64,000 bases of DNA from Candidatus Sumerlaeales bacterium (GCA_038243585.1 JBBSQY010000011.1:1-64000); one strand, 5' to 3'; positions 7,500 to 58,657 are shown, numbered from the stretch's first letter. Notes: generated from the sequence alone by a model not told the origin. Translations and numbers: made by a program.

Positions 7500-9191
7500 T
7501 TAGTAGATTTCCCATCCGGAAATGCTTGCTACCCCGCCGACAAAGTCTGCTCCGCCGCTTAACGGCGCAGCGTTTGGTGGTTCAGCATTGTCTACGCCGG
7601 CCGTCGCGTAACCGTTATTTTGCACGTCAAGGAACGATGGGTTGGCCGGATAATTACCCCCGCCATTAATGTCTGTCACCAGAAAAACCGGATCGGAATT
7701 GGCGTAGGTGCCGGTTGCAGGATGAGTAGAGTTGACACCCCTCGAGAACGGATTCGAAGCCCGGAACGCATAGCGGCCCTCGGTCAATATCGCAGACCCT
7801 TCCTGGGTTACGATGTTGGTGCCGGCCAGGCGGATGGTGTTGCGGTCAACCGTAGTCGCGGTCGGAGCCGGCGGAACCGGAGTTCCTACGATGCTGCGGT
7901 CGAGTCGTCCGCCCAAAATAGAGTTGCGCAAATGAAGGTTGGTGATTGTCGAGGCTTCAAAGTTGAAGATGCTGCCTGCACCGTTGTGGTTACGCCCGCC
8001 AATTAACGTGGAGTTCGTCAGAAGAATGGTTCCGGTGGTGGCGTATTCCACCTGAAAGACCTGGTTGAGGCACATGAACATGATACAATTGTCCATGGTC
8101 CACCGAATCGAGCCAAAGCCGCGATCGAGTATGCCAACTTTGCTCATATCGGTAATGATCGTGTTTTTGAACTGCCGATAATTGTTGGCTGCGCCGTCAA
8201 ATCTGACCGAGTAATCATTAGAAGCGCGCAGGTGAACAGGGTTTTCTTCGGAGCCTTCAACATTCAGGTCTCCGCAGATGGAGAGCAGATTCGAGGCGAA
8301 GCTGACTCCCGACTTGCCTTCAATGCGCGTGATCCTTGCCTTGGATGGGTCCCCGGCGTCATGCATGACAATGTTCGTCGAAAACCTTTCCGGCTCATCG
8401 GCCGCCGGATGATAATGGCTCTTGAAGTGACTGATGACGGAATCATGAAGGAGAACCTCAACACCGTCACCCTCGGTGATTCCGGGCAGGTAAGTGCGGC
8501 CAAGAATCAGGCCGTGGGCTCCGAACTGAACGACGTATGGATTATATGGCTCGGGACGAGTCGGCGAATCCCCTGGAAAAACAGCGAAAATGCGGCTGCT
8601 AACGGGGTCTGTCACCAGCGGAGCGTGGTCCTCATTGGGGGCGATAACAACGCCGTTCAGTTCCAGGTACAGGTTGTTATTGCGATTTTCAATGGCGCTG
8701 CGCAGACGAGTTTGAAGGGTTGAACTGGTTCCCGGATTGATGTTCATGGAGGGAATAATGTTAAGGTTTTTGAGAATGACGCTCCCTGTGGTGCTGGCCG
8801 CAGGCAGGTCAATCACTATGCCGCCTTCACCGTGGCGAATGATGTCAGGGTCATATTGCGGATATTCCATGAACCCGTTTGGATTGGCCATTAATTCGAG
8901 AGTGGCTTTTGCTTCCGGCCCGTATATGGTCACCGGGGTTTGAATTGTGATGACCACGGCAAAAACACCAGAAACCGTGATCGGGATAACCGTGGTGGTC
9001 GGGTCGCTGTCGGGATCCACCGTAAAATGATTGAGGGCGTTGTCTATCCTGCTATAGGTGGCCCCTGGGTCTGTCTGGTTAACCGTGACGGTTTGCCCGG
9101 ATACCTGCAATGGCAGGGCAAGAGCCGCCAAAGCTGCTGAAAATTGGAATAAGTTCAAGGTGTTTCCTTTCAAAATGGGTTTTGCGTTCAA
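7500..9191 (-). CDS. Secreted protein, probable beta-helix/pectin-lyase-like fold, with C-terminal W-x-I-Y tail
   Basis: Signal peptide (AALAALALPLQVSG-Q), TVTVNQ...YSRIDNAL start, beta-helix-like N/T/I-rich rungs (MDNCIM, LTNSTL, LRNSIL), ends DFVGGVASISGWEIY; GGAGG RBS. Confidence 0.75.
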   Translation of the reverse strand: MNAKPILKGNTLNLFQFSAALAALALPLQVSGQTVTVNQTDPGATYSRIDNALNHFTVDPDSDPTTTVIPITVSGVFAVVITIQTPVTIYGPEAKATLELMANPNGFMEYPQYDPDIIRHGEGGIVIDLPAASTTGSVILKNLNIIPSMNINPGTSSTLQTRLRSAIENRNNNLYLELNGVVIAPNEDHAPLVTDPVSSRIFAVFPGDSPTRPEPYNPYVVQFGAHGLILGRTYLPGITEGDGVEVLLHDSVISHFKSHYHPAADEPERFSTNIVMHDAGDPSKARITRIEGKSGVSFASNLLSICGDLNVEGSEENPVHLRASNDYSVRFDGAANNYRQFKNTIITDMSKVGILDRGFGSIRWTMDNCIMFMCLNQVFQVEYATTGTILLTNSTLIGGRNHNGAGSIFNFEASTITNLHLRNSILGGRLDRSIVGTPVPPAPTATTVDRNTIRLAGTNIVTQEGSAILTEGRYAFRASNPFSRGVNSTHPATGTYANSDPVFLVTDINGGGNYPANPSFLDVQNNGYATAGVDNAEPPNAAPLSGGADFVGGVASISGWEIY

Positions 9192-9208
9192 TGTGTATGC
9201 TGCCTCCG

Positions 9209-9871
9209 TTATTGGAATGAGTGAAGAGATGGTGAACCTTTGATATACCAGATCCCGCCCACGCTCAGAGTGCCGTTGGTGGGATCATAAACGAGTATTT
9301 TTTTCTTTGAGTCGCGAAGCTTTTTTGACGGCCCGGTAGAATCAAAAGCGTACGCGATATTTTTGCCGACCCATTCCACAGGGTAGACGGAAGCGGCAAT
9401 TCTTTCCATTACGGACGTGCCGCGGTAAATGTAGCCTTCCCAAATATCTCCCTCATTATAAGCTTCGTAACGACCGAACGGGCAAACAGCCGGCAAAGAG
9501 GACAGGTAGCTGACCGGACTGGTAAGCTTAAACAACGCGTCATACTTCTTGTTGTACTTCTGTTTAATCGACTCATAATCGGCCAGATTTGTCGTTCCCC
9601 AGCTATCGCTACTATATTGCGGTTGAGAGACATCGGCGGGATTACTGTCGGTCATATATTTGCTGTAGTCTATATGATAAACTTCTGCCCCGGTCGCCAG
9701 CGTTCTCATATCGGCTTTGGCGCGACTGACTTTTGCGCGGGTTTGCGCTTCCAGGAAGTTAGGCACCGCGATAGCGGCGAGGATCGCGATGATGGCCACC
9801 ACGATCAGCAGTTCGATCAGGGTAAAGGCTCTAGCCAGAGAAAAGTCTCCCCTGATCAATATTTTAGTCAT
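9209..9871 (-). CDS. Prepilin-type N-terminal cleavage/methylation protein (type IV pilin/pseudopilin-like)
   Basis: Class III signal A|FTLIELLIVVAIIAILAAIAVPNF with F+1 and E+5; C-terminal YDPTNGT.S.G motif. Confidence 0.92.
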   Translation of the reverse strand: MTKILIRGDFSLARAFTLIELLIVVAIIAILAAIAVPNFLEAQTRAKVSRAKADMRTLATGAEVYHIDYSKYMTDSNPADVSQPQYSSDSWGTTNLADYESIKQKYNKKYDALFKLTSPVSYLSSLPAVCPFGRYEAYNEGDIWEGYIYRGTSVMERIAASVYPVEWVGKNIAYAFDSTGPSKKLRDSKKKILVYDPTNGTLSVGGIWYIKGSPSLHSFQ

Positions 9872-10031
9872 AGTTATGAATCTCTTAATTTAAATTTATA
9901 ATAATAACTAGTAATCGATTCATGGTCTGTCAAATTAAACCAGACCGGGTGATGTCGATATCTTATACAGTTGTGTTAATTCGGGATTTCACAGGCAGTA
10001 GCACCCGCGAAGTGAAGCGAAAAACAATCCT

Positions 10032-10667
10032 TCAGGAGTTATTAAACGTCTCCGGCGTCAGGTGCCTGCGGGCAGCTCTTTGGGCGGTCATATCCACGTG
10101 CAGCTCCAGCATCTCCAGTAATTTGTCTACGGGCAGGCCGACGACGTTGAAGTAATCACCGATGACCTGCTCGACCAGCCTTCCGCCGAGGCCCTGGATG
10201 CCGTAGCTGCCGGCTTTGTCGAGCGGCTCGCCGGTGGCGACATAGTCATTAATTTCCGCGGTGGTAAGGGTCTTAATCCGAACATCGGTTGCGACGGCGT
10301 CGAGCTGGGTTGACTTTCCAACTTCCCGGACCGCGATCCCTGTAATGACCTGATGAGTCCGGCCGGACAGTTCGCCAAGCATGCGAACCGCATCGGCGGG
10401 GTTATCCGGCTTGAAATAAATTTTGTCGCAAGAGACGACGATTGTGTCGGCCGCGACCACAATACTGCCTTCCGGAACCTGATCATCCAGGGCCCCGGCC
10501 TTTAAGAATGCAGCTTTTAAAGCAAACTCGCGAGGCGAGCTGGCGACGATGGCGCGTTCGTCTACGTCAGCGGCTTGAACCTGATGCGGAATCTCAAGGA
10601 GCTGAAAGAGACGACGACGACGTGGCGATGCCGAGGCCAAAACTATAACAGGAGTTACATCGCTCAC
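10032..10667 (-). CDS. maf: Maf family nucleoside triphosphate pyrophosphatase
   Basis: LASASPRR, ADTIV, LSGRTHQV, DKAGSYGIQG, NVVGLP. Start re-assigned to GTG 10667, which overlaps the upstream stop as GTGA. Confidence 0.93.
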   Translation of the reverse strand: MSDVTPVIVLASASPRRRRLFQLLEIPHQVQAADVDERAIVASSPREFALKAAFLKAGALDDQVPEGSIVVAADTIVVSCDKIYFKPDNPADAVRMLGELSGRTHQVITGIAVREVGKSTQLDAVATDVRIKTLTTAEINDYVATGEPLDKAGSYGIQGLGGRLVEQVIGDYFNVVGLPVDKLLEMLELHVDMTAQRAARRHLTPETFNNS

Positions 10668-10999
10668 GGGGCAGCGGATGTGGTAGTTGTGCCGCTCAAC
10701 ACGGCTTTGATGCGATCTTGTCGTCTTTTCAAACGCTCGTCCGCTGATAAATAACGTGCGATAGACGAATCCAATTGACTTGCCGCAGCTAGCTCCGCAG
10801 ACGATGATGTGGTCTGGGTGTCGGCTGTCGTGGCCTGCGTGGCGGTTGTAGTTCGCGCCGACGCACCCGCACCCGCCGACTTTTCCTCTTTTGAGGAACA
10901 TGATGAAAGAATTACAGCAATCAGTGTCAATGACGCTAATAGCGGCAAACGGCGCTGGCGCGTTGGTTTCCGATTTGAGAGGAATTTTAAGATCAGCAT
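10664..10999 (-). CDS. Small lipoprotein, hypothetical
   Basis: Basic N-terminus, hydrophobic stretch and lipobox LSSC; Thr/Ala-rich; translationally coupled to maf. Confidence 0.65.
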   Translation of the reverse strand: MLILKFLSNRKPTRQRRLPLLASLTLIAVILSSCSSKEEKSAGAGASARTTTATQATTADTQTTSSSAELAAASQLDSSIARYLSADERLKRRQDRIKAVLSGTTTTSAAP

Positions 11000-11122
11000 T
11001 ACGTGTAAGCCAAATAGGGTTTTCCCTGAAAAGCTATTGTTTTCTTCTTCTCTCGTGAAATTTTCCCATAAAGTGTTGCTTCCATGACTCCATATATTCG
11101 ACCAGGCACCGAGAGTGGTGTA

Positions 11123-12583: not shown

Positions 12584-12869
12584 ATTTCCATCCCGCAAAA
12601 ACTGGTGGCAATGCCGCTTCGCTCCTGACCACCGGCTACCACTATTTAGCGCACTAAGGGCAATCTGCAAAATGGGTGATGTCTGTATTTATTACTAGTT
12701 TCTGATAAACCACGCTAGATAGGCAAAAATAACTAAAAATGGGATGAGACTGGACAATGCGTTTTAAGGATCGATTGCTAGTTGATATCTATGTCGTCTT
12801 GGCAATAATTTGCCATTTCGAATCAATCAGGATGCCTGCTGAACACTGGAAAGCTTTAAAGAAAGCCTG

Positions 12870-14330: not shown

Positions 14331-14497
14331 GATTAATTTCCGGGAAAGAGGACGTTTGTAGCAAGCTGAATCCAAGCATTTAACAAAGCACTATAGGTAC
14401 TTTTCTTATAACATGCCGTTCAGTCAAAGTTGATAATTTTTGCACTTAAATGAGCCGGACAAGTTGCTCGATAGAAATACTGTGTCCTTCAATTGAA

Positions 14498-14533
14498 AAA
14501 GCGCAAACCCGTCTGTTGACGGATTTGCGCTTT
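14498..14533. terminator. Probably bidirectional intrinsic terminator
   Basis: Hairpin aaagcgcaaacccgtc-tgtt-gacggatttgcgcttt between convergent genes, flanked by A and T runs. Confidence 0.8.
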
Positions 14534-14568
14534 AAGAAAATTAGTCGTGGTGTTTAGACTAAATTTTA

Positions 14569-14730: not shown

Positions 14731-14824
14731 AATAACATCTCCAAACCTAGTAGTTTTTTGCGACCTGTGCAGGTTAAGCTATTAGCATTATTACACAGAC
14801 CGCTCTTCGTATGGAGTACTTACG

Positions 14825-14840
14825 GCAAGTGGTATGCCAA
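14825..14840 (-). promoter_or_regulatory. Sigma54 (-24/-12) promoter for the DUF1328-like gene
   Basis: Minus strand TTGGCATACCACTTGC: GG-N10-GC with TGGCA and TTGC consensus, about 95 nt before the ATG; AT-rich tract upstream. Confidence 0.75.
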
Positions 14841-32559: not shown

Positions 32560-32788
32560 GTCGGTGTCGTGATTGAGCTTAAACTTGGTTTCTTATTCCA
32601 CGTTTTGCTCAGCAACAATCGCAGCGCTGGCTGACAGGGCGCATGTATTTTGACTTAAGGGTTTGCGTTCGGGTGGGTTGCCTGTTTCCATGGGATTTTG
32701 AACAACATGATGACATGACTGTTACGGATAGAAGCTAACCCGCTCATGTTATTAGTCCCGTTGTTTTACCAGGTTAGTCAAATTGCAT

Positions 32789-35700
32789 ATGCTGGAAAAC
32801 CTTAGCTCACGACATAGTAGGCTGTTGGGTGTATTGCTGGCGGTTCTCGCGGTAGGTCTTCTTCTGACCTTTAGCGATTCTGTTAGTGGCTACGATGCGC
32901 CCAAAGCTTTGACCAGAATCACTGGGACTCATGCCCGTACGCCGGGCGTCATACCTTCAACTTACAATGGACGAAGCTCACGCAAGTCTGATGCCAAAGA
33001 CAGCGGCACGTCTGGTGCGGCCACGCTGTCAGGCCCTGACTACAGCACATCCATAACGCTACATGGAAGAACCCTGGATGAGCAGGATAAGCCTCTTAGT
33101 GGTGTAAAGGTGTCTGTTCGGCGATCGGGATATTCTGAAACTGTTAAAACACAGGATTCGGGCAAGGATGGCAGCTTCTCTTTAGATGGTCTTCCTGCGG
33201 ATACTTATGATATTCTGGCAACTCATGAGAAGTTTGTCTCCCTGATCAGGCCCAGTTACACTTTTAAGCCGGTGGAAACGATGGTCCATATGGACTTTCA
33301 TTTGCCGCTGGGAGCAAATATAAACGGTCTGGTTGTCAACGAAGAGGGTCAGCCGCTGGAAAATGTGCGTGTAGCGGCTCGCAGAAAACAAGCGACAGAA
33401 AGCAAAAAGAACGGCGCCGTTCTTTTGGATGACAGCACTTATCATACGCAGATAACTGACAAGCCAGGCACCTTTACGCTGTCGGGCATTTCTCTCGGCG
33501 ATAATGTGTTTGAGTTTTTTGTTCCGGGTTACGCGATGGAGCGTATGGCGCTGGATATCTCTCCAGAGAAAGCCGCGGAGCAGATGAAGGTGACGCTGAA
33601 GCGAACCGGGATTATCGCGGGAATGGTTCTGGATGAAAACAACCAACCTGTTTCTACGGCAACGGTTTCGTTGACCCGTTATAAGCCATTGCAGAGTGAA
33701 GCCCAGAATATTGATAAGGGTAAGCTGACCGCCGTGACAAACGCGAAGGGTGAGTTCAAGTTCGAGAAGCTCTACAATGAGGGCTACTACGACCTGCTCG
33801 TGGAAGAGGCGCAGTATGCGCCGGGTATATACCCGCTGGTTCCGGCCAATTCGGATCGCGTGGTATGTCAGGTAGGGTTAGGGGGCGAAATCTCTGGATT
33901 GTCTCAGCTTATTGATAGGCCCACGACTGCCGTTTCTGTGTTAATCAAGGCAACGGCTTTAATTAAAGGGACCACATTTACAAAAGAATCAACCAGCGAT
34001 GGGGCAGGCCGCTTTCGATTCCAGAAGCTACCCTACGGCGCGTATAGTCTGACTGTAGACGACGGTAAGTTTTTGAGTGAACCTAAAGACGGAGTCGCCT
34101 GTGCGCGGGAAAAACCTACGCAGGATGTCGCGGTAGAGTTGTTTGAAACCGCCAGGTTGAAGGGGCGGGTGAGCGACAGTGAGAATGACGCGTCCGTTCC
34201 GGGAGCAAAGGTCACGCTAAAAGCCACCTATGGATTCGATAAGGCCCGGCAAAAAACCTTTACGCTGACTGCAGATGCCCACGGGGTTTTTGATTTTGGA
34301 AAACTACCATCGGGGATTCATATAGCGCAGGCGGAAGCGCGAGGCTTTCTAAAAGGACAAACTGTTAAATCCCAGCAGAATTTTGTGCTGACACCGGGCG
34401 AGCGCAAGAGCGATCTCATCCTGTATCTGGATCACGGGGGCAGCGTGGAAGGCTTCGTGCTTGATCCAGCGGGGCGCAGCGTGGCGGATGTAGACATCCA
34501 ACTGTTCGCGGCAACGCAGTTTGATGGAGCGGTGGATCCGGCCAAATTAAAGGGACGGACGGACGGCACTGGGTATTTTAAAGTTTGGGGCATCGAGGTG
34601 GGCGAACGGGTGCAGCTTTATGCCAGCGCGTCTAAAGCGGGCTATACCAAAACCCGGAGCGACATGGTTGAGCTATCTCCCAAGGCCATGAGTCAGGCAG
34701 TGCAGATCAGCATTTCTGATGGCGGAGAAGTAACCGGAATTGTGACTGATAAAAACAAGATGCCTATTCCAGGGGCAGAGGTTCGCATGGACAGCCAGGC
34801 TTTCCCGGGAGATCCGTCGCCGTCTCATATTGTTGTCCATTCGCAGCCTAACGGAACCTATCGGGTGGACAGCGTTCCGCCGGGAGGTGCGACCCTCACG
34901 GTGAGCCGGGCGGGCTTCGTGAAGCAGGGGCGCGGGGTCACGGTTCGCGATTCGCAACACAACGACAATGTTAATTTCGAGCTGGAAAGTGGCACTACGA
35001 TAGCCGGTGTGGTAGAGGATTTAGATGGTAATCCCATAGCCGGCGCAAAGGTTAAAGCTACCGGGATTAAGGGGTCGGCCGGTTCCGAAGAGGATACAAC
35101 GGATAAAAAAGGGAACTTCGAACTGAACAATCTGGGCAAGGGGGACTTTCGTCTGGACACGACCTTTAATATTACGACGCCAGAGGGAGTCCAAGCGTAT
35201 AGCTTTACGAATCCAAGCGTGCGCTCAGGTACGGCGCAGGCGTCGATTGAATGCGATCTTGGAAACACTACCCTTGGAAAAGTGAAGGGCGAAAAAGGTA
35301 AGGACGTCGACAACTTCACTGTAACTTTAAATAGCAAAACGGATACAAAAACATCGCAGGATTTTGTGTTTAACCTTGCCAGAGGCCTGAAGGATTCGGG
35401 CGGCTTTTTTCGCCTGAGCAAACTGCCGAGGGGCATTTACAAAGTCACGGTGACTGCGGACGGCTTTGAGCCTTACGTGGAAGACGAAGTTGCCATTGGC
35501 CCGCACAAGCGTACCGTACTGTCGGAGATTAGGCTAAATCCTGCAGGGGGTGTGGTTGGCCGGGTGTATTCGACGACTTCAGACCGTCCTGTTAATAACG
35601 CGTCGGTTAAGCTGGAGAGCGTGGATAGCCTGGCGGGCGAAGCACCTACAGTTGTTTCTGGCAGCACCAATATGCGCGGGGATTTCCGCGTGGCGACTGT

Positions 35701-36637
35701 ACCGCAGGGGATGTATCGGGTAAGCATTGATCACCCAAGCTATATAGGTACAAAGCTGGAAATGATCCACGTGACGGAAAAGAAAGAACGGGATTTGGGC
35801 AAGTTGTTTCTGGAGCCGGGCGGGGCTGTTCGTGGGGTTGTGGAAAATCACCTGGGCGACCCTGTCCCGAATATGAAGGTTACGGTGAAGGGGGTAACCC
35901 CTACGAAGCAAACGACTACCGATGCTGCGGGAAATTATATGATTCAGGGCGTTCAGTTTGGCCGCTGGTCTGTGGTAGTCGAGGGTACTATGTCGAGCAA
36001 ACCCATTTACGCCTTTCAAACTTCAGATTTTGAACGGGACGAATCTGAACAATTGGATTTTATGTTGGAGACTACGGCAGACCTTTCCGGTCGCCTGATG
36101 GCGTCTGGAGAATCTGACCTACGCTCCGGCTCGGTAGCCATCCACGCTTATGACGAAAACAATGTTGTGTTGGAAAACGTGCATTATGACGCTAAGGCAA
36201 GTTCTAACAATTTTGATATTAATGAAGTTCCGCCCGGACAGTACTTTTTATGGGTTGCAGGGCAGGGAGCAACTTCCTCTTTAAGTGCATGGAAAGATAT
36301 CTTCCTGGAACGCGGAAAGAACCACACGAACGTGGAAATTGGATCGAGCAAAATTCAGGGCAAGGTCATGACCGGAGCGGGAGAGCCAATTTCTAACGTT
36401 GCGGTGCAGGTGCTCCCGATTTTTAATATGCCGCGGCTATCGCAGAATTTGTATAATAAGCTGATCCGTCCTACAGTATCCAGTGCGGACGGGTTGTTTA
36501 GTTTTGAGAATTTGCAGGCGGGATCTTACCAGGTGATTACGGAAACAGCTGTGGGTGGCGGATGGTATGCACAGCCGATTTTTCGGCTTAATAGTGCGCA
36601 GACATTCCAGGGGTTAAATGTGTTATTGAATGACTGA
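32789..36637 (+). CDS. Large membrane-anchored protein with tandem carboxypeptidase-regulatory-like (Ig-like) domains
   Basis: N-terminal TM; many repeats of the pattern G.V.D..G.P...A.V.....TD..G.F....L..G.Y. Confidence 0.88.
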   Translation: MLENLSSRHSRLLGVLLAVLAVGLLLTFSDSVSGYDAPKALTRITGTHARTPGVIPSTYNGRSSRKSDAKDSGTSGAATLSGPDYSTSITLHGRTLDEQDKPLSGVKVSVRRSGYSETVKTQDSGKDGSFSLDGLPADTYDILATHEKFVSLIRPSYTFKPVETMVHMDFHLPLGANINGLVVNEEGQPLENVRVAARRKQATESKKNGAVLLDDSTYHTQITDKPGTFTLSGISLGDNVFEFFVPGYAMERMALDISPEKAAEQMKVTLKRTGIIAGMVLDENNQPVSTATVSLTRYKPLQSEAQNIDKGKLTAVTNAKGEFKFEKLYNEGYYDLLVEEAQYAPGIYPLVPANSDRVVCQVGLGGEISGLSQLIDRPTTAVSVLIKATALIKGTTFTKESTSDGAGRFRFQKLPYGAYSLTVDDGKFLSEPKDGVACAREKPTQDVAVELFETARLKGRVSDSENDASVPGAKVTLKATYGFDKARQKTFTLTADAHGVFDFGKLPSGIHIAQAEARGFLKGQTVKSQQNFVLTPGERKSDLILYLDHGGSVEGFVLDPAGRSVADVDIQLFAATQFDGAVDPAKLKGRTDGTGYFKVWGIEVGERVQLYASASKAGYTKTRSDMVELSPKAMSQAVQISISDGGEVTGIVTDKNKMPIPGAEVRMDSQAFPGDPSPSHIVVHSQPNGTYRVDSVPPGGATLTVSRAGFVKQGRGVTVRDSQHNDNVNFELESGTTIAGVVEDLDGNPIAGAKVKATGIKGSAGSEEDTTDKKGNFELNNLGKGDFRLDTTFNITTPEGVQAYSFTNPSVRSGTAQASIECDLGNTTLGKVKGEKGKDVDNFTVTLNSKTDTKTSQDFVFNLARGLKDSGGFFRLSKLPRGIYKVTVTADGFEPYVEDEVAIGPHKRTVLSEIRLNPAGGVVGRVYSTTSDRPVNNASVKLESVDSLAGEAPTVVSGSTNMRGDFRVATVPQGMYRVSIDHPSYIGTKLEMIHVTEKKERDLGKLFLEPGGAVRGVVENHLGDPVPNMKVTVKGVTPTKQTTTDAAGNYMIQGVQFGRWSVVVEGTMSSKPIYAFQTSDFERDESEQLDFMLETTADLSGRLMASGESDLRSGSVAIHAYDENNVVLENVHYDAKASSNNFDINEVPPGQYFLWVAGQGATSSLSAWKDIFLERGKNHTNVEIGSSKIQGKVMTGAGEPISNVAVQVLPIFNMPRLSQNLYNKLIRPTVSSADGLFSFENLQAGSYQVITETAVGGGWYAQPIFRLNSAQTFQGLNVLLND

Positions 36638-44669: not shown

Positions 44670-47615
44670 CTATTCCGACGCGCGAATGAAACCTTTTCCT
44701 TCTGATGTGACTTCTGCGTTTCCTATTACAGAGTCGCCGGACCACACTTCGTATTGTCCCGGTGCGGCATCGGCTTCAAGGCCTTCGGCGGTCCACCGAG
44801 CACTTGTGGTCTGGCGTGACTGGCGGTTCATCATTATTATTGGCGAGTCGCTCTGTAAATTTAAAGCAGGGTCGATCGTGAAAATGACCGGCTGAGGGGG
44901 CGTCAGGTCCAGCCTTATTGTCGCGGGCTCTTCTCCGGCCTTGATAGCCACAGAAGCGGCGGCCTTAATTGTATCATTTTCGCTATTGAATTCTGTAGAT
45001 ATGGAATAGGAGTCGGGGGTGAGCCCTTCAAATAAAAAGCCTCCATTTGGGCCGGTGGTTTCGTTTCTTTGTTCATAGCTGGAATCAGTCTCCGACAATA
45101 ATTGAACGGCCGCTCCGGGGACGGGCTCGCCCGCTATCTCGACTATTCCTGACAAGCTGGCCATGGGCACTGCCGCCAGGTCAACGGTGACGCTCTGCCC
45201 CGGAGCGAGTTCAACGTTCAGCGCATAACTGGAAGTGGCCTCGCCGGCTCCCATTACGAGGTAATTGCCTGCAGGGAGGCCGGTCATGCTGTATTTCCCG
45301 TTGGAGCTGGTTGCCTGGAACTCCGCCTTGTCTCTACCTGCGGATTCCGGGACTGCCGTGTTTACTAACGTCACCACTACCGGCTGATTCTCAGCACCTG
45401 TGGCCCCGGAGATTGAGCCTGTCGCAGTGGATGAAAGAGAAATGGTTTTTCCCGTCGCCCGCTCCCCCGCCCAGTCGAAGGACTCGCTTACTATAATCGC
45501 GCCGTTTGTGGCGTTTACAGCCACAACGCGGAATTTCCCCTCCTCGCCGATTCCCGTCTCCAGGGATTCTCCGCCCGTGACTTCTCGCGTAAAGATGGAG
45601 TGGCCCATCAGCTGATCTGCGTAGGCACCGATGCCCCATGGCGACATGCGCACGACATGCACATTCCAGGCTGTCGACGGAGACGCCTCTACCAATATGA
45701 CAAGTTTGCCCAATGGCTGCATGGTCAGGATCTTTTCATCGGCGGGTAGCTGCACGTTCTGCTCTCTATAATTGGCAAAGGAGGCAGCCTCGGCCACTAT
45801 TCCAGGCAGCACGTTGGCGGTCAGGTCTTCTGCTTGAAATTTCCCAGTCTCATCCGTCTCCAGCTGCAGGGGCCCACCGTCTGACTGAAACAACGTGACC
45901 CGGGCAAAGGGTATGGGTGCTCCCTGAGGGTTTAATACCTTTCCGGATATTCGGTTTCCTGCTTCCCACTGGATATCCGGCAAGGTATTAGACCCGGCAG
46001 AAAGAGATACCGGATGGGTGGTGGTTCTTGTTCTTGAGCCGTTGGTAACTGACAATATGAAGTCTCCGGTGGGCATGGCCGGGAAGGTATAAGTTCCATC
46101 CGGGCGTGGGCTTACGCCAGAAAAGAGAGAAGCTGCAGTTCCTGATGGGTCCATACCCAAAGTGAAACCACGAACTCTGGTGGTCTCATCGGTATTGACT
46201 AACGTCACTCGTCCTGACGCACTGGCGGCCTGCTCTAACTTGAGGGCTACCGGAATGCTTGTCTGATCTGTTACCGATACTTTTTCAACACCGGTCGCCA
46301 AACCTCCGGATATGCCGTATACGCCGTAAGACCCAGCGCGGTAAACCGGGATTGTTAAGGTGGCGGACGTCGCCAAACGACGTATTGCTTCTTCACTATC
46401 TGAGAGAACCGTCATTGATACCGGTTGGGTGGTTGCCCCGAAATTATCCAATTGGATCTCAAGCAATCGCTGCCTGCGCACGCGGAGTATCACTCCATTG
46501 ACGTCGGTGAAGCCATCGGTCGCGTTGTACTCGTTTGCAGCTACGAGCTCGTCCAAACGCCAGCCATCTGATTCAGGAACAGCGAGCGCGAGTTGCCGCG
46601 CCTGGTAAAAAGGGCCCAGGACGAAGGATCCGTCTGTGGATGAAGTAGTCCAGCGATCATCCAGGCCAATAGAAACTTGATTTGCCGGAGCGCTGGTTTC
46701 CACATCTATGGCTGAACCGCGAATGTAGTAACCGGCGCTGACTTCCAGGGAAATTGAGGTTTTGTTGTCGTCGGGCATTTCGACAACTTCGACCTCGGCG
46801 GAGCGTTCACCGTCCATTATCAGAGGTTCAACGGAAAAGGTCCCTCCTGGCAGTCCGTCAAACTGGAATTGTCCCGCAGGCCCGGCGCGGCGTACGACGT
46901 CGAACCCGTTGCCATTGGCGCGGACAATTGTGCCGGCAAATGCGGCAGGTCTCGAGCCTTTAGAATACACCTCACCGCCAACAGAAAAGCCGCCCTTGTC
47001 CATGGGAACGTTTGCTGTGGCCTGGCCTTCGGAAAGTTCGACGTTACCAATAACATACCCTTCGACCTGCACAATAAAGCGGTGCGCGATATCCGGCGCG
47101 ACTCCTTCAAAGGAGAACGAGCCGTTTTGGTCGGAAGTCGTCCACTGAGGAACGACCCTCAGGGCACGCTGGGTCTGGGTATCTATTCCCGCAACCAAGG
47201 GTCCGATGTTTGCCCCAGCTATCGGCGCGTTTGTCGCGCGGTCCGTAATTTTTCCTTTCACTGCGATGCCCGGCTCCAGTGCCAGGCCGATTTTAACGCT
47301 TTTGGCAGTTGCGGGATTGATGGCATATTTTGTCATCCGATGCGCGGCGCCCCATGCTACCAAGGCGACCGGGCTGGTAGAAGACACGTCAATGCTAAAT
47401 TCGCCTTTGCTGTTGGTCTGCGTTTTCTCTGCCGGTTCCATTTCAGAAGGTGTCCAGTAACGACTCTGATCCGGCACGACAATCACATGGGCACCTGCCA
47501 CCGGCACCTTTTTCGAATCTGTTACCAATCCAGTTAGCGTAGCCTGTTGCGCTAAGGCTCCATTTAAACCTAAAGCTAAAAGCAATGCGCTCAATGCGAT
47601 ATACCGAATTATCAT
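44670..47615 (-). CDS. Large secreted protein with carboxypeptidase-regulatory-like domains
   Basis: Signal peptide (ALA-Q), repeated G.V.D....P..GA.V...T...G.F pattern; GAGGAG RBS before ATG 47615. Confidence 0.85.
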   Translation of the reverse strand: MIIRYIALSALLLALGLNGALAQQATLTGLVTDSKKVPVAGAHVIVVPDQSRYWTPSEMEPAEKTQTNSKGEFSIDVSSTSPVALVAWGAAHRMTKYAINPATAKSVKIGLALEPGIAVKGKITDRATNAPIAGANIGPLVAGIDTQTQRALRVVPQWTTSDQNGSFSFEGVAPDIAHRFIVQVEGYVIGNVELSEGQATANVPMDKGGFSVGGEVYSKGSRPAAFAGTIVRANGNGFDVVRRAGPAGQFQFDGLPGGTFSVEPLIMDGERSAEVEVVEMPDDNKTSISLEVSAGYYIRGSAIDVETSAPANQVSIGLDDRWTTSSTDGSFVLGPFYQARQLALAVPESDGWRLDELVAANEYNATDGFTDVNGVILRVRRQRLLEIQLDNFGATTQPVSMTVLSDSEEAIRRLATSATLTIPVYRAGSYGVYGISGGLATGVEKVSVTDQTSIPVALKLEQAASASGRVTLVNTDETTRVRGFTLGMDPSGTAASLFSGVSPRPDGTYTFPAMPTGDFILSVTNGSRTRTTTHPVSLSAGSNTLPDIQWEAGNRISGKVLNPQGAPIPFARVTLFQSDGGPLQLETDETGKFQAEDLTANVLPGIVAEAASFANYREQNVQLPADEKILTMQPLGKLVILVEASPSTAWNVHVVRMSPWGIGAYADQLMGHSIFTREVTGGESLETGIGEEGKFRVVAVNATNGAIIVSESFDWAGERATGKTISLSSTATGSISGATGAENQPVVVTLVNTAVPESAGRDKAEFQATSSNGKYSMTGLPAGNYLVMGAGEATSSYALNVELAPGQSVTVDLAAVPMASLSGIVEIAGEPVPGAAVQLLSETDSSYEQRNETTGPNGGFLFEGLTPDSYSISTEFNSENDTIKAAASVAIKAGEEPATIRLDLTPPQPVIFTIDPALNLQSDSPIIMMNRQSRQTTSARWTAEGLEADAAPGQYEVWSGDSVIGNAEVTSEGKGFIRASE

Positions 47616-48106
47616 AGTTAAGCTCCTCAATTATCTACCGAACTAGGTCTGCGAGTTTTTCAAATGCAAGGGGGGAACTTTACACAGAAGCTGCCATTGC
47701 TTAAAAAAAATCACACCTGTCAATTATCCTGTTGCTTTTCGATTTAAGGCCGTGCACGAAGAGCATTTATATACACGGTGCATTAGGACTGTGCTACCAG
47801 TCATAAGTGAGTTAAAATAACAGGCATAATTTTCGCACAAGCTTCAAATTAATCAGTACGTTTCACCTGGTAGCTCTCCGCGCGTACGCCGGAATTTAGT
47901 TTTAGTCGCAATCCGAGGTTCGTACCGCCCGTCCCACCATTATTTCTTTAACGCTTAGCCATTCTGTAACGATAGAAAGGATGTGTAGCTCTCTTCCTTG
48001 GATCCAGCAATGCTGGTGGAAGAGCTAGACCTGCCATCACTGGATGCAGGAAACCGTTCGGCTTTTCGGCCGTATGCTACGTTAGATTGAAATGGAGTTT
48101 TTTATA

Positions 48107-49129
48107 ATGGTTCGGCATTTTCGTATTACTCTCATGGCCGCTTTGGCTATTACCTGTTCCGCAGGATGGAGCGCCAAAGTTTGCATCGATCCCGGTCACG
48201 GCGGATCCGACCCTGGCGCAGTAGGCAGCACGCAGCAGGAAAAAACCAACGCTTTGAATACTGGTCTGAAATTTCGTGACTGGTTGAACGCTGATACCAC
48301 GGACGGCGGCGGCGGCGGATCCTGGCAGGTGCTAATGACGCGCACTTCTGACGTATTCGTATCGTTGACTGCTCGGTCTGACTATGCGAACAACAACGGC
48401 GTGGCGCGCTTTATGTCCATCCACAATAACGCCTGCGGATGCGGTGCAAGTGGCACGGAAACTTATAGCCATACCAGCAACGGCGCTTTAAGCAACGACC
48501 TCCGGAATAACATTCAGTCACGTTCGATTCAGGCTTGGGGACTGCCAAACCGGGGCAATAAACAGGATAACTTTTCTGTGCTACGCGAGACAAATATGCC
48601 TGCGACTCTGGCAGAACTTGGTTTTATCGATAATGCCGGTGACCGCGGTTTTCTGGGCAGTTCTACGCAACAGAACACCATGGGTAAGTACCATATGTTT
48701 GCGTTGCAAAATCACTATGGCATTACCGCTTATACCCCTGGAGCAACTCTGCCAACATATGTGGACGACACTCCGGCAGTAAGCAGTGGCTGGTCTACCG
48801 GAACATCAGCAGGCGACAAGTATGGCTCTGATTATAAGTACAAATCAACTGCCGCTGTTAGTGATCCTGCCACGTGGAGCATCAACGTAGGCACGGCCGG
48901 ATCTTATAAAATCCAGGCATGGTGGCCTGCAGGCACCAACCGGTCACTTGGCTCGCCTTTTGTTCTACCTAATGGAGCAACTGTTAACGCGAACCAGCAG
49001 ATAAATGGTGGCAAGTGGAACACGCTGGGCACTGTTAGCCTGGGCACCGGCACCAGAGACACGCAGCTTTCGTGTTGGGCTGCATCCGGCTATATCGTGG
49101 TGGCCGACGCCATTCGTTACACGCCTTAA
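48107..49129 (+). CDS. Secreted N-acetylmuramoyl-L-alanine amidase (Amidase_3) with golvesin/Xly-CBD-like C-terminal domain
   Basis: IDPGHGG.DPGA, E, SIHNNA, VLRE..MPA.LAELGF; C-terminal YK.QAWWP...NQQ.NGGKW..LG...ADA.R. Confidence 0.93.
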   Translation: MVRHFRITLMAALAITCSAGWSAKVCIDPGHGGSDPGAVGSTQQEKTNALNTGLKFRDWLNADTTDGGGGGSWQVLMTRTSDVFVSLTARSDYANNNGVARFMSIHNNACGCGASGTETYSHTSNGALSNDLRNNIQSRSIQAWGLPNRGNKQDNFSVLRETNMPATLAELGFIDNAGDRGFLGSSTQQNTMGKYHMFALQNHYGITAYTPGATLPTYVDDTPAVSSGWSTGTSAGDKYGSDYKYKSTAAVSDPATWSINVGTAGSYKIQAWWPAGTNRSLGSPFVLPNGATVNANQQINGGKWNTLGTVSLGTGTRDTQLSCWAASGYIVVADAIRYTP

Positions 49130-50493: not shown

Positions 50494-50623
50494 ATGGGTT
50501 CATTAATTATGGATAGGAGGCGCCTACAGTAATCTTTCAAGAATCCTAATTTCGCGAAAGAGAACACCCGTTATCATTGGATGCGGGAACCAATTCGGAA
50601 AGACCGGAATGGAGCTCTTAAAT

Positions 50624-51652
50624 ATGTTTCAAAATCACACTCGGATTGCCCTGGCGGCAACCCTTGCAATTGCTTGCACTACAGGTTATAGTGCAAAAGT
50701 TTGTATTGATCCCGGTCACGGTGGGTCAGACCCAGGTGCAGTCGGCGGCGGACAATACGAAAAAACCAATGCGCTGAACACAGGATTGAAATTCAGGAAC
50801 TGGCTGAACGCCGACAGCAGCGACGGCGGCGGCGGCGGATCCTGGCAGGTGCTGATGACGCGCACATCAGATGTATACGTGTCATTGACGGCTCGGTCCA
50901 GCTATGCCAACAACAACGGCGTGGCGCGCTTTATGTCCATCCACAATAACGCATGCGGATGCGGCGCAAGCGGTACGGAAACTTTTAGCCATACCAGCAA
51001 TGGATCTTTAAGCAACGACCTCAGAAACAATATCCAGTCACGTTCGATTCAGGCTTGGGGGCTCCCAAACCGGGGCAACAAGCAGGCCAACTTCTCTGTG
51101 TTGCGCGAGACGAATATGCCTGCAACCCTGGCAGAACTTGGTTTTATCGATAATGCTGGTGACCGCGGTTTTCTGGGCAGTTCTACGCAGCAGGATAAAA
51201 TGGCAAAGTATCATATGTACGCGCTTCAAAATCACTACGGCATAACTGCTTATACTCCTGGATCAACAAGCCTTCCAACGTATGTCGATGGAAGCCCTAC
51301 GGTGAGCGCAAACTGGGCAACAGGCACATCGGCATCCGACAAGTATGGAACCGATTATAAATGGCGCTCCACTGACGCGGTCAGCGACGCAGCTTCGTTC
51401 ACCATGAATGTTGGAGTAGCGGGATCTTACAAGGTCCAGGCCTGGTGGCCTGCTGGCAGCAATAGGTCTCCAAGTGCACCGTTTATCCTTCCTAATGGCA
51501 GCTCTGTCAGCGCCAATCAACAGGCGAATGGCGGGAAATGGAATACTCTTGGCACGGTCAGCCTTGGAACCGGGAACAGAACAACAATGCTATCGTGCTG
51601 GACCGGCGCCGGCTATCTGGTTGTGGCAGACGCGGTTCGCTACACACCTTAG
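50624..51652 (+). CDS. Secreted N-acetylmuramoyl-L-alanine amidase paralog with golvesin-like domain
   Basis: Same motifs as 48107-49129 and full-length similarity to it. Confidence 0.93.
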   Translation: MFQNHTRIALAATLAIACTTGYSAKVCIDPGHGGSDPGAVGGGQYEKTNALNTGLKFRNWLNADSSDGGGGGSWQVLMTRTSDVYVSLTARSSYANNNGVARFMSIHNNACGCGASGTETFSHTSNGSLSNDLRNNIQSRSIQAWGLPNRGNKQANFSVLRETNMPATLAELGFIDNAGDRGFLGSSTQQDKMAKYHMYALQNHYGITAYTPGSTSLPTYVDGSPTVSANWATGTSASDKYGTDYKWRSTDAVSDAASFTMNVGVAGSYKVQAWWPAGSNRSPSAPFILPNGSSVSANQQANGGKWNTLGTVSLGTGNRTTMLSCWTGAGYLVVADAVRYTP

Positions 51653-51684
51653 TATTAATGTAATATTTACGTGCTCTCTTATGC

Positions 51685-51720
51685 ACCCCCGGGCTCTTTT
51701 GCTCCGGGGGTTTTTTGTTT
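51685..51720 (+). terminator. Intrinsic terminator
   Basis: acccccgg...ccgggggt followed by a T-tract. Confidence 0.8.
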
Positions 51721-51944
51721 AAATATGGGTGCGAACCATATGAAGAGGTGGCGGCGGTTGACATGACAGCTTCGAATTCAATCCGCAATAGCACAATCGT
51801 GTTCCGCACACAGCGAAAGCGTTGAGGATAGCACCCACATATCGTAATGGTCTGGGTAAACGCCGGTGAACTGCTCAGGAGCAACACATGTCAGCTTTTG
51901 TTTCGTCTTCCTTTTTGCGCGTCTTAGGAATGAGGCCTCGTCAT

Positions 51945-51981
51945 AAAAAAATTGTCCGTCACCAGATCAGGTGACGGACAA
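51945..51981 (-). terminator. Intrinsic terminator
   Basis: ttgtccgtcacc-agatca-ggtgacggacaa preceded by an A7 run; downstream of the TPR gene. Confidence 0.82.
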
Positions 51982-52127
51982 AATTAAAGAAGGCAGATCC
52001 GAATTTCACTAAGGCGTCCGTCCACTAACCTGTCTTAGAGAAGTGATGGCTTTTGGACTTTGTGCTCCGCACTGCAAAAAGACATCATAACTTGAAGATT
52101 AAGGAATCCGTTGGGAACCCAATTTGG

Positions 52128-54833: not shown

Positions 54834-55131
54834 CTTTTCCCCTACTATTTAAGAACTCTGTCGCCGGGAACACCATGGGCTGGCGTATCACCGGTTGCAC
54901 AGGTAACCAGCGATATCATAACGTCTAAAAGAAGCGGCAATTGTTCCCGGGCAAATGCAAGCACTTTGCTGCGTCTTTTGGGTTTGTGGAGATCGAACGG
55001 GAAATCTCTGTTGCTTTACAGCATTAAATCAGCCCTCGTCAAATCGTCAGAATCGTTGACATCATCATAAGTCTCAGACCCTGACTGACGTTGTAATCCT
55101 CATTCCATTAATAAAAAGCGGACGGTCCCTC

Positions 55132-56691
55132 ATGCGTAATATTTTGTTGGCAGCTTTTCAGGTTTTTGCGATCCTGCTGATCGGGGGCTCGGCCCGGGCG
55201 GAGTCTCTCCGGGTTGGAGACATTCTTATCAGAAATGGCCGAGTGATTGACGGGACAGGCGCCGCGGCGGTGGAAGCGGACGTGCTGGTACGCGGCGACA
55301 AGATTATCGCGGTTGAAAAATCGCTTCGCATTGATTCAGCGGATACAACCGGCGGCGTGACGATTATTGACGCCGCTGGACGGGTCGTAACTCCGGGGTT
55401 TATTGATACGCACTCTCACGGCGATCCGGCGACTCATCCGGATATGCACAACTTTCTTGCCATGGGCGTTACAACACTATGCCTCGGTCAGGATGGGAGC
55501 AGCAACCCCGTGACTACAATGAGTCAATGGTTGGACGACATGGCAACTACGGGGCTGGGGCCGAATGTTCTGACGTTTGTGGGTCACGGAACGGTGCGAA
55601 CGGAATCGGGCGTGGGACTCTCGACGCAAATAACGCCGGCGCAGCTTGATAAGATGGCAGCCCTGGTGGAGCAGGGATTGGAAGCGGGAGCTTTCGGACT
55701 GACGACCGGGCTGGAATATCAGCCGGGCTCGTTTTCCCGTGCGGAGGAACTGGCGGCAGTCGCGCGACCGGTAGGTAAGCGGGGCCTGGTCGTGATGAGC
55801 CATATGCGAAACGAAGACGATGACCAGGTTACCTCTTCTATACTGGAGCTTATCAACCAATGCCGGACCGCAGGCGCGAATGCTCATATTTCACACATCA
55901 AATCCGTATATGGCAAAGGCAGCGGACGCGCAGAGGAGATTCTGACGCTATTGGACAAGGCGCGGGCGGAGGGAACGGCCATCACTGCAGATATCTATCC
56001 CTACACCGCCAGCCATACAGGCCTGAGTATTTTGTTTCCGCCCTATGCGCTGCCGCCAAACAGTTACACGGAGACCCTCGCGACGCGTCGCGATGAACTG
56101 GTTCAGTATCTGAATGATAGGGTTACAAAACGAAACGGCCCGGAAGCGACGCTGCTTGGGACTGGGGAAAACGCGGGCAAGACGCTGGCGGATCTGGCGG
56201 CAGAGCGCGGCAAACCGTTTGCGGAAGTGCTTGCGGATCTGGGACCTCGGGGAGGAAGCGCGGCGTATTTCGTAATGAACGAGGACCTGCAAAGCCGACT
56301 GCTGGTAGCGGATGGCGTCAACATCTGCACCGACGGAAGCCCCACCATGCGACACCCGCGTAGTTATGGCGCATTTGCACGGGTGATTCGAAAATTTGTA
56401 AATGATGAAAAACTTCTTACGCTGGAGGAGGCGATCCACAAGATGAGCGGCCTTCCTGCGCAAACGATAGGCCTGGACAAGCAGGCGCGCGGCACCATTA
56501 AGCCCGGCAACTTCGCCGACATTCTCATTTTCGATCCGGCTAAAGTTCAAGACACCGCAACCTTTGAGGAGCCGCACCAGCTGGCGGAAGGGTTTGAAAC
56601 GGTGCTGGTGAACGGCGTCATCATTCGCGACGAGAGCAAATTTAACGGTAAACGCGGTGGTCAGGTGATTCGCCATCAGGGAAAGAAGTAG
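55132..56691 (+). CDS. Secreted N-acyl-D-amino-acid deacylase (D-aminoacylase family amidohydrolase)
   Basis: Signal peptide, PGFIDTHSH, GQDG, GHG, SHMRNE, D.YPY.A, HPR.YG.F. Confidence 0.92.
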   Translation: MRNILLAAFQVFAILLIGGSARAESLRVGDILIRNGRVIDGTGAAAVEADVLVRGDKIIAVEKSLRIDSADTTGGVTIIDAAGRVVTPGFIDTHSHGDPATHPDMHNFLAMGVTTLCLGQDGSSNPVTTMSQWLDDMATTGLGPNVLTFVGHGTVRTESGVGLSTQITPAQLDKMAALVEQGLEAGAFGLTTGLEYQPGSFSRAEELAAVARPVGKRGLVVMSHMRNEDDDQVTSSILELINQCRTAGANAHISHIKSVYGKGSGRAEEILTLLDKARAEGTAITADIYPYTASHTGLSILFPPYALPPNSYTETLATRRDELVQYLNDRVTKRNGPEATLLGTGENAGKTLADLAAERGKPFAEVLADLGPRGGSAAYFVMNEDLQSRLLVADGVNICTDGSPTMRHPRSYGAFARVIRKFVNDEKLLTLEEAIHKMSGLPAQTIGLDKQARGTIKPGNFADILIFDPAKVQDTATFEEPHQLAEGFETVLVNGVIIRDESKFNGKRGGQVIRHQGKK

Positions 56692-56833
56692 ATGTATCCA
56701 ACGCCAGCCCGCCGATTCTTATACCCATATTATGACTTTTGGGAACCACCAATAAACGTAGGATATTAATGTTTTTAAAAATCAAACTGATGGTGTCTGC
56801 AAAAGTCTGAACGCAGGTTGGGGGAGCTCTTCA

Positions 56834-58657
56834 TTGTTTTTATCCAGATACAAGCTGCACCGTCTCATAGTAGTTACGACACTGGCAGTATTATCGGTTG
56901 CGCCTATTTCGGCTCAACTCCTCGATGAGGCGGTTTGGTTTCAGCGGCCTGTGGGGCAGGGAGTTTATTGGAAATACTATCATTTCAAAAACCTGTTTGG
57001 CTCCAGACAAAGCGTTTCCTACATTGAAGTCGACCTTTCCACCCCTAACGTGAATCTTGCAATAAATTACAGAGACAGCTATGTCGGCCCCAGCCCTGGC
57101 ACAGGAAGCCCTTTATATCCCCGGGCGCCGACAAGCACTTTGGCACAGGGCATTCCTGGTTCAAAAGCGGCGATCAATGGGACCTATTTCAATACAGCAT
57201 CATATGATTCGACCAACCCGACGGTCCCATGGGGCGGTGGAACAACTTATCTGAAAGTAGATGGTTCAACTATACACAATTTTGATGGTACCAGCGTAAA
57301 CCGGTATCTCATGGGAATCCTGTTTAACAGTAAAGACGATGTTACTGTATTCAAGAGGTCTGGTGCCTGGGCCAATCGTAGTGGTTCGTGGAATAACATG
57401 ATGATTAGTGGACCCATCCTGGTTAACAACGGCTCCATAGAAACTTATGCCGGGGACAACACTCATGCCAATGCTCGACATCCGCGTTCTGCAGTGGGCA
57501 AAACCGCCGTCGGCAACAAACTGATAATGCTTACGGTGGACGGCCGAACGGCTGAGTCGGCTGGGATGTCATGCACGGAGCTGGCGCAGGTGATGAAGGC
57601 ATTGGGCTGCAATTACGCGGTGAATCTGGATGGCGGCGGATCAACGACATTGTGGGCGACGGGCGAGCCTTTTAGCGGTGTAGTAAACTATCCTTCCGAC
57701 AACGGCGAGTTCGATCACCTCGGACAACGGTTCTGCGCGAATGCACTCGTGGTTACATCGACAGCTCCGGTCAAGCCGGCGTATGATGCGCGTTTGACAG
57801 GGCTGACCTACGATTCACTGACGCGCAGTCAGGATGTTGTTACCGTGACGGCCAGCTACACGAACATTGGCAGCGCCACATGGACTTCGTCTAACGTGGA
57901 CGTGGTGCCAAGCCGGAATTTTGGACGTAGCAGCGCGTTCATTCCCGCCGGCAGCGAAAACAATTTTGATGTAATGACGCCTTCAAGCGTGGCGCCGGGC
58001 CAGACGGCAACCTTTAAGTTGAATCTGAAAGCCCCGGTGGTGGCGGCCAACCGCAGCTATGAGGAAAACTTCGCCTTGTGGAACTCATCCACCGGTTATT
58101 TCGGACCTGCGGATGGAGAACTGAAAGTGCAGACGACGGTGCGTCCGGCGATTACTGGCGCGCCACCGTTGCTGGTGGTGCAGGGAACCAGTGACGGACC
58201 AAATAATCAATGGTATCTGGAAGGTCTGGGAAACTGGGGAAACTCGAGTGTGGGCTTCAGTGCGCCGGGAGTTGCGAACTCCGGCACGCAGCGCTATGTG
58301 TCGGCTACGGTAACAGGACAGCACGCTGACTTCAGGCCGATTTTCGAAGTTCGGGGTGTGTATCGAGTAGACGTGGCCTTCCCTGCCAGCAGCAGCAATA
58401 TTAATCCTGTTCACTACACGGTGAATCATCTGAACGGCTCTCAAACAGCCACTGTAAATCAGAACAACAGCGACCTTGCCAATAAGTGGCAACTGCTTGG
58501 AGAGTTTCCTTTTGGAACGGATTCTATCGCCAACCTTGGGGTCCACTCGGTTCGAGTAAGTAACAACACATCCACAGGCAATCGCTTCTACTCAGGGGCC
58601 ATACGGCTTGACTATGTTGGCCCCCTGGCAGACGTTACCGACTGGGCTCTATATTAA
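56834..58657 (+). CDS. Secreted phosphodiester glycosidase (NAGPA) family protein with Ig-like and golvesin-like domains and a C-terminal W-x-L-Y tail
   Basis: AINGTYF, GP.LV, HPRSAVG, VDGR..S.G, NLDGGGST; N.G..TW / VAPGQ.ATF Ig-like segment; ends DYVGPLADVTDWALY. Confidence 0.9.
   Translation: MFLSRYKLHRLIVVTTLAVLSVAPISAQLLDEAVWFQRPVGQGVYWKYYHFKNLFGSRQSVSYIEVDLSTPNVNLAINYRDSYVGPSPGTGSPLYPRAPTSTLAQGIPGSKAAINGTYFNTASYDSTNPTVPWGGGTTYLKVDGSTIHNFDGTSVNRYLMGILFNSKDDVTVFKRSGAWANRSGSWNNMMISGPILVNNGSIETYAGDNTHANARHPRSAVGKTAVGNKLIMLTVDGRTAESAGMSCTELAQVMKALGCNYAVNLDGGGSTTLWATGEPFSGVVNYPSDNGEFDHLGQRFCANALVVTSTAPVKPAYDARLTGLTYDSLTRSQDVVTVTASYTNIGSATWTSSNVDVVPSRNFGRSSAFIPAGSENNFDVMTPSSVAPGQTATFKLNLKAPVVAANRSYEENFALWNSSTGYFGPADGELKVQTTVRPAITGAPPLLVVQGTSDGPNNQWYLEGLGNWGNSSVGFSAPGVANSGTQRYVSATVTGQHADFRPIFEVRGVYRVDVAFPASSSNINPVHYTVNHLNGSQTATVNQNNSDLANKWQLLGEFPFGTDSIANLGVHSVRVSNNTSTGNRFYSGAIRLDYVGPLADVTDWALY

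Follow-up and report, generated by a model that had tools for sequence, protein, structure and literature searches.

A 64,000-nucleotide stretch of an uncultured Sumerlaeota genome (Candidatus Sumerlaeales bacterium, GCA_038243585.1, JBBSQY010000011.1:1-64000; hereafter the window, from an assembly that is 90% complete) encodes two secreted-looking proteins that end in a similar short peptide with a tryptophan and a terminal tyrosine. A first-pass annotation of the window had proposed this C-terminal tail as an uncharacterised sorting or docking signal, and we followed it through the genome and the phylum. The features concerned are listed below.

7422..7452, minus strand: intrinsic-terminator-like hairpin of 13 pairs followed by a T run, after the pilin and tail-gene pair (consensus match only)
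7500..9191, minus strand: tail carrier, secreted beta-helix/DUF1565-like protein, 563 aa from the first start codon
7503..7529, minus strand: tail copy 1, nine codons A-S-I-S-G-W-E-I-Y, at the end of the beta-helix-like protein (stop codon 7500-7502)
9209..9871, minus strand: GspG-like pilin of an expanded paralogous family (N_methyl, PF07963)
56834..58657, plus strand: tail carrier, secreted NAGPA (phosphodiester glycosidase) protein with Ig-like and Golvesin_C domains, 607 aa (Pfam)
58628..58654, plus strand: tail copy 2, nine codons A-D-V-T-D-W-A-L-Y, at the end of the NAGPA protein (stop codon 58655-58657)

The open reading frame (ORF) at 7500-9191 ends in DFVGGVASISGWEIY and that at 56834-58657 in DYVGPLADVTDWALY, both at the coordinates first assigned to them. 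Aligned without gaps over 15 residues, the two ends share the six identities and five positive-scoring pairs originally described, with a BLOSUM62 score of 44; when non-tail C-termini were paired at random, 5 of 200,000 pairs reached it. The remainder of the two proteins is indeed unrelated, no BLASTP link being left after removal of the tail, and both N-termini look like Sec-type signal peptides by eye and by script. The beta-helix-like protein, which is 552 aa long in the protein collection, has no match in a Pfam search; its Atlas neighbours are DUF1565/right-handed beta-helix proteins at 0.92-0.93, and all three of its close homologues carry the tail at their end. An orthologue in the same-genus genome G061 (L250:1420-3048) has an intact tail followed by 26 further residues. 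Pfam assigns PF09992, PF16158 (under cut-off) and PF25275 to the NAGPA protein, whose named homologues are mostly from Candidatus Sumerlaeota.

Tails were scored with a position-specific scoring matrix (PSSM) trained on 46 seed ORFs, whose selection rule included the W and the final aromatic residue; one seed, C97, which ends W-P-I-F and has no signal peptide, was kept in the training set and stands outside the carriers counted below. Leave-one-out scores are 17.0 bits for copy 1 and 20.4 bits for copy 2. With up to six residues permitted after the final aromatic, a proteome scan revealed the motif on 84 ORFs, so that confinement to the two window proteins, one way in which the proposal could have failed, did not occur. 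Eighty-two of these carriers are at least 100 aa long and make up about 3% of the 2,628 genes of this size in a crude gene call.

What the tails have in common spans nine residues, [STA]-x-[VAI]-x-D-W-x-L-[YF], and not the fifteen first described: positions upstream of W-5 vary across the 84 carriers and are rich in Pro, Thr and Gly. Within the core, S/A/T is found in 82 of the 84 carriers, V/A/I in 82, D in 51, W in 82, L in 56 and Y/F in 84 (75 Tyr and nine Phe at the +3 position after W); the counts for W and the +3 aromatic are not independent, as both residues helped choose the carriers. An AlphaFold model of the NAGPA protein (mean predicted local distance difference test, pLDDT, 88.9) places residues 589-596, including D-Y-V-G, in the last golvesin strand and residues 597-607 in coil, the last seven (601-607) with a pLDDT of 51. 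Since D-Y-V-G belongs to that last strand, three of the six identities (D, V and G) fall outside the motif. The 15-residue alignment thus appears to fuse a domain strand with the true tag, and in the single carrier for which a model was made the nine-residue tail is predicted to be no part of the fold. When the tails are aligned on W, 49 of the 84 end at Y/F, 31 run one residue further and four run two to six further; these one to six extra residues on 35 tails, and the 26 on one orthologue, fit docking as a strand better than binding in a free-carboxylate pocket.

The specificity of the signal was gauged against several controls. After 49 ORFs the PSSM scores drop to 4.3 bits or less, and scores of at least 12 bits occur in just 7 of 986,049 internal windows, the top two of which are near-terminal copies. 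Of 5,851 shadow ORFs, three qualify, including two short genes that also count among the 84 carriers. A strict back-translated DNA pattern gives 25 matches in this genome and one in its reversed control, with 0-3 matches per genome in the reversed controls overall. The carriers form 45 single-linkage clusters, and the segments preceding the tail form 57. Chance resemblance, or the last strand of a common domain, is therefore barely credible as an explanation of the nine-residue core, which contradicts it on all of these counts. The suspicion that the alignment merely recorded the last strand of a shared fold was correct for D-[FY]-V-G, the upstream half of the 15-mer, and fails for the core: 57 different segments precede it, and in the model it is not part of the fold. 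The nine-residue tail is almost certainly a functional tag.

Carriers are strongly enriched in predicted signal peptides, as called by a permissive, crude script rather than SignalP. The script passes 71 of the 84 carriers and 911 of 1,988 background genes; under a rule that allows no later membrane helix, the comparison becomes 71/84 versus 622/1,988 (p 7e-23), and the objection that the motif might be equally frequent on cytoplasmic proteins fails. Several of the 13 carriers that do not pass resemble contig-end or start-codon errors, and one has a Tat-like N-terminus. No carrier (0/84) has a membrane helix after residue 90, and the column counts agree with the original description of a tail free of both transmembrane helix and basic cluster. 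Lipoboxes are found on 2 of 84 carriers versus 41 of 598 secreted-looking genes without the tail.

Pfam searches of 48 of the 84 carriers gave domains that include GH43, GHL10, subtilase, trypsin-like, M1 and M12 proteases, sulfatase, nucleases, amidase, lamin-tail, fn3, BNR and ice-binding; 18 of the 48 are without a domain. The cargo is mostly polymer-degrading and adhesin-like. Such enzymes and adhesive domains are the usual extracellular cargo of type II secretion systems (T2SS). The first-pass annotation had seen the tail as modular and selectively appended, citing two window amidases (48092-49129 and 50609-51652) that share the golvesin-like domain of the NAGPA protein; both do contain Golvesin_C, end at the domain's last strand and have no tail. 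Using the golvesin domain of an amidase as the query, we found 17 golvesin-domain proteins in the genome, four tailed and 13 tail-less, which argues that the tail is appended selectively and, together with the 57 pre-tail segments, supports the modular reading. Most of the 13 tail-less proteins, the two amidases and 11 further genes of the genome, end at the domain's last strand. Two small proteins, L038:6969-7256 (95 aa) and L212:2381-2662 (93 aa), consist of a signal peptide, a small unannotated domain and the tail, and would be convenient minimal substrates.

The same data bear on the idea that the tail acts in the periplasm alone, as a chaperone, PDZ-protease or stability tag. PDZ ligands end in a hydrophobic or aromatic residue, which the end of the tail resembles, and some carriers, such as the amidase-domain proteins, could act in the periplasm. 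However, 35 of the 84 copies extend beyond the Tyr/Phe, which a carboxylate-binding pocket would not tolerate, the cargo is largely of the polymer-degrading and adhesin-like kind, and 13 of the 17 golvesin proteins do without the tail. We regard a purely periplasmic role as highly improbable.

The tag extends through the phylum, for which 75 Sumerlaeota genomes were sampled. A strict back-translated pattern matches in 49 of the 75 genomes, a pattern with one extra residue in 57, and either pattern in 64; these patterns also allow a Trp codon where the stop should be, and lone matches are at about the control level. Five of the 11 pattern-negative genomes were rescanned loosely and all exceed their own controls; the matches listed for G002, G005 and G006 include W-x-[LIM]-Y-R-stop forms, unconfirmed as ends of genes. 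Among homologues of the NAGPA protein, 50 of the 85 closest pass the tail PSSM versus 0 of 34 more distant ones, and 74 of the 85 have a W within their last eight residues. Similarly, 23 of the 28 closest homologues of a sugar dehydrogenase pass versus 0 of 91 more distant ones, two of which have degenerate Trp tails below the cut-off. A tail profile run against 1.84 billion representatives returned three matches, all internal repeats in unrelated-looking proteins, indicating that the motif is too short for profile searching at that scale; against the PDB it returned none. The data support the original suggestion of a lineage-restricted, modular tag, which may serve in export, anchoring or scaffold docking.

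Gene neighbourhood supplies the main clue to function. The pilin at 9209..9871 sits 17 bp upstream of the beta-helix tail gene on the same strand, and the two genes are likely co-transcribed. The profile of its family finds GspG structures as its best PDB matches, albeit weakly (E 0.002-0.09). The family numbers 26 copies in this genome (the window gene and 25 other places) and 13 to at least 48 per genome, being present in all 75 Sumerlaeota genomes; further sites are loci L075-L154, and nearly all of the 80 database records listed for the family are from Sumerlaeota. Members share a near-identical N-terminal helix, a hypervariable middle and a conserved Y-D-x-T-N-G-T-x-S-x-G end. An AlphaFold model of the pilin domain built with 23 sequences was poor (pLDDT 55; predicted template modelling score 0.32), and a PDB fold search with it was empty.

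A family pilin is the immediate neighbour of 10 of the 84 tail genes versus 40 of 2,520 other genes. Measured against secreted-looking genes without the tail, the excess holds at 10/84 versus 11/598 (p 5e-5), and for same-strand neighbours at 8/84 versus 8/598 (p 2e-4). Around 80 pilin-centred loci of other genomes, the tail occurs on 13 of 132 adjacent genes versus 5 of 312 further off (p 1.8e-4), though these loci come from related genomes, several from one genome, so the p-values overstate the case. One short contig recorded as Spirochaeta (L078) has a family pilin beside a tail gene; its genome has no strict-pattern match, and the contig is possibly mis-binned. We rejected a cognate pairing of each pilin with its own cargo, as the window pair is not kept in the same-genus genomes G061 and G062, nor beside L075.

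These observations point to the pilin and T2SS machinery, which the first-pass annotation had named merely as one thing to check, and the genome is equipped accordingly. It encodes three secretins, a GspD-M-L-K-J-I-H-F-E cluster on contig C45 (F and E assigned by sequence and position) and a GspG on contig C5 (L207:2180-2617, equivalent to C5:15179-15616), along with additional sets of minor pilins. Across the phylum, a J-like pilin was found in 73 of 75 genomes and a secretin bearing tetratricopeptide repeats (TPR; detected by its TPR-to-N-domain region) in 69 of 75. The TPR secretin of this genome (L062:9554-14632, C32:28553-33631) is 1,692 aa long, combines TPR repeats with a helical stalk that is long and charged, and is a candidate peptide reader. 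An 803-aa GspK-like pilin with a lamin-tail insertion (L059:7440-9851, C15:49439-51850) lies apart from its H-I-J genes here; in other families, what looks to be its counterpart comes directly after J. A second filament cluster (L055:4030-6875 and L056:60-1426; C45:4030-10425) contains an ATPase, two platform proteins, small I-, J- and K-like pilins and one member of the expanded family. Its small K-like pilin (C45:9059) was found in 7 of 75 genomes and was set aside as a universal reader, being too patchy with the query used.

We compared the tail with catalogued sorting signals. No sorting-domain model matches 29 full-length carriers (NCBIfam) or 46 tails (NCBIfam and Pfam). Two catalogued putative sorting motifs of 10-11 positions, NF053834 (ultrashort_CTERM) and NF050076 (sort_motif_YLP), make very short signals a recognised kind; neither matches the 46 tails, and genome-wide they stay below cut-off, at a length where HMMER filters are weak. 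In the literature searched, which mostly excludes subscription journals and also excludes supplements, no description of the motif was found, and 'C-terminal' does not occur in the main text of two Sumerlaeota genome papers (PMC8092238 and PMC10866078). LPXTG, PEP-CTERM, GlyGly-CTERM and MYXO-CTERM signals resemble the tail in being C-terminal, present in many copies on unrelated signal-peptide proteins and marked by a near-invariant signature (10.1101/2023.06.07.544157). In contrast to these tripartite signals, the tag has no transmembrane helix or basic cluster, and no exosortase was found in the genome. The C-terminal domain (CTD) of the type IX secretion system (T9SS) is likewise a one-to-many C-terminal address on Sec-exported hydrolases and adhesins, but it is a folded domain of about 70 residues (TIGR04183, 72 positions), whereas the tag spans nine residues that are predicted to be unstructured.

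Set beside the general criteria of Haft for one-to-many sorting signals (same source), the tail agrees on points 1, 2, 3, 6 and 7: it stands near the C-terminus in 84 copies, its signal-peptide carriers fall into 45 clusters, and distant homologues are tail-less. That agreement would suit a reader unrelated to pili, for instance a barrel of the outer membrane, a T9SS-like translocon or an enzyme that processes the tail, with the pilin adjacency reflecting co-regulation; so would the facts that most tail genes lie apart from pilins and that the pairs are not conserved. Against such a reader, the exosortase model TIGR04178 is not found in the genome with a control positive in 3 of 14 genomes, rhombosortase and myxosortase being outside that search, and the adjacency to pilins holds against secreted-looking control genes. 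SprA has no match in the 90% complete genome, although no control genome gave a signal; the T9SS domain TIGR04183 is absent from the 29 carriers and, with a silent control, from the genome. We judge a non-pilus reader fairly improbable.

Closer likenesses are found among peptides read by pili. The last ~10 residues of PilC/PilY1 contribute an additional beta-strand to PilK (PMC13533445), and the key positions are a Trp, which is conserved, and a hydrophobic residue at +3 (PMC13711793). Like the C-beta segments of PilC/PilY1 and MshQ, the tail here comprises about ten C-terminal residues on a Sec-exported protein, with a Trp and a +3 hydrophobic residue and no membrane anchor, and type IV filament genes are present in this genome. 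The differences are also clear: the former are one or two beta-propeller adhesins per cell, compared with 84 unrelated proteins here, and the PilC/PilY1 tail reads W-R-E-hydrophobic rather than D-W-x-L-Y. The PilY1 domain PF05567 was found on none of 50 carriers and nowhere in the genome, where its control was silent; in the search for a PilK/PilX without its terminal strand, PF14341 was not found in the incomplete assembly, with controls positive in two genomes. The second precedent is TcpF of Vibrio cholerae, in which a disordered aromatic peptide is necessary and sufficient for pilus export via a minor pilin and is transferable (PMC10120004; PMC9565799). TcpF and CofJ of enterotoxigenic Escherichia coli resemble the present case in carrying a short, disordered, aromatic peptide outside the fold of a periplasmic protein for pilus-dependent export. 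Their signals, read by two minor pilins, TcpB and CofB, are N-terminal and each serve a single cargo that the pilus operon encodes; the tag described here is C-terminal, on dozens of scattered genes (84), and the pilins are GspG/type IVa-like. Since a defining feature of each of the PilY1, TcpF, tripartite and T9SS families is lacking, the tag belongs to none of them. What would be new is a short C-terminal signal common to dozens of unrelated cargoes that, by analogy, works like a pilus-read terminal peptide.

The PilY1 precedent also lends itself to a different function, in which exported enzymes clip onto a surface scaffold or a fibre of pilin paralogues, forming a cellulosome-like array that retains or displays them. 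In PilY1, the strand itself serves to retain the protein at the tip of the pilus (PMC13533445), pilin adjacency fits such a dock equally well, and the carriers, with no membrane helix and few lipoboxes, have no other anchors. Moreover, of 12 homologues scanned, a distant one of the NAGPA protein ends in a MYXO-CTERM-like anchor (17 bits; cut-off 20), and another two show weak similarity to the terminal part of a myxosortase-dependent family. This hint of anchor exchange, however, falls short of the cut-off and comes from three of the 12; the precomputed Pfam annotation of the 91 distant sugar-dehydrogenase homologues lists no tail of the PEP-CTERM or T9SS type, and no scaffold with repeated receptor domains turned up, no systematic search having been made. 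A retention dock is unlikely in our estimate.

Overall, the balance tips slightly toward a linear tag used for export by type IV filament or T2SS-like machinery. In this scheme, the carriers would first undergo predicted Sec transport and fold in the periplasm, where their free Trp/Tyr peptide would attach to one of the parts of the filament machine. By analogy with the PilC/PilY1 tail, the peptide may dock as an added beta-strand, with the W and the +3 aromatic on opposite faces. The reader would be a pilin, either of the expanded GspG-like family or of the single-copy H-I-J-K set at C45:196-2212 and C15:49439-51850, or alternatively the TPR arm of the giant secretin, and the folded cargo would then be pushed out through a secretin. 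A preprint that locates the specificity of T2SS secretion in the major pilin, within a variable loop (PMC13081927), fits a pilin family with hypervariable middles. We advance more tentatively, as a possibility that may well prove wrong, that Sumerlaeota turned a single-cargo pilus-docking peptide into a general, transferable T2SS-like secretion signal for ~3% of the proteome, read by paralogues of the GspG-like pilin family.

Several observations weigh against export by pilus-type machinery. No family pilin adjoins 74 of the 84 tail genes, and no tail gene adjoins 16 of the 26 pilins; beta-helix homologues in G061 and G062 have no adjoining pilin in L250, L251 and L254, L252 beginning at its contig end, nor is a tail gene next to L075, the nearest relative of the window pilin. 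Adjacency could instead reflect co-regulated nutrient-capture loci. Both the tail and the pilin family are almost phylum-wide, which makes a presence/absence profile impossible within the phylum. Five PilK/GspK-like proteins appear, from sequence, to keep their own last strand, which would leave the exact PilY1 mechanism without its acceptor. When scored, the C-termini of GspG and GspK show weak similarity to the tail, and the same applies to the last strands of two GspK-like proteins. At least one carrier, a PIG-L protein (C65:12821-13591), shows no signal peptide. Finally, how T2SS selects folded periplasmic cargo is an open question, and recognition is thought to use folded features, with simple linear motifs not its basis (PMC13721041).

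The last point is also why the tag matters: one peptide on dozens of unrelated cargoes makes T2SS selection directly testable with a single sequence. The peptide could be moved between proteins as a tag for export or display, and it offers a handle on the role of the many pilin paralogues. Irrespective of what reads it, the motif provides a ready secretome marker for an uncultured phylum, including many proteins without a Pfam assignment.

Some further observations concern GspG and the window. A W follows the calcium-loop D-I-x-N in 12 of 30 Sumerlaeota GspGs, and many others have F or Y there; the GspG of this genus has no aromatic residue at that place. The tail as a mimic of the GspG C-terminal segment was rejected, with 25 such segments scoring far below real tails (upstream about -2 versus 8.6 bits), and is at most a weak lead. 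The window also encodes two large secreted proteins with tandem CarboxypepD_reg-like repeats, at 32783-36637 (11 matched stretches) and 44670-47630 (five), both of which are tail-less.

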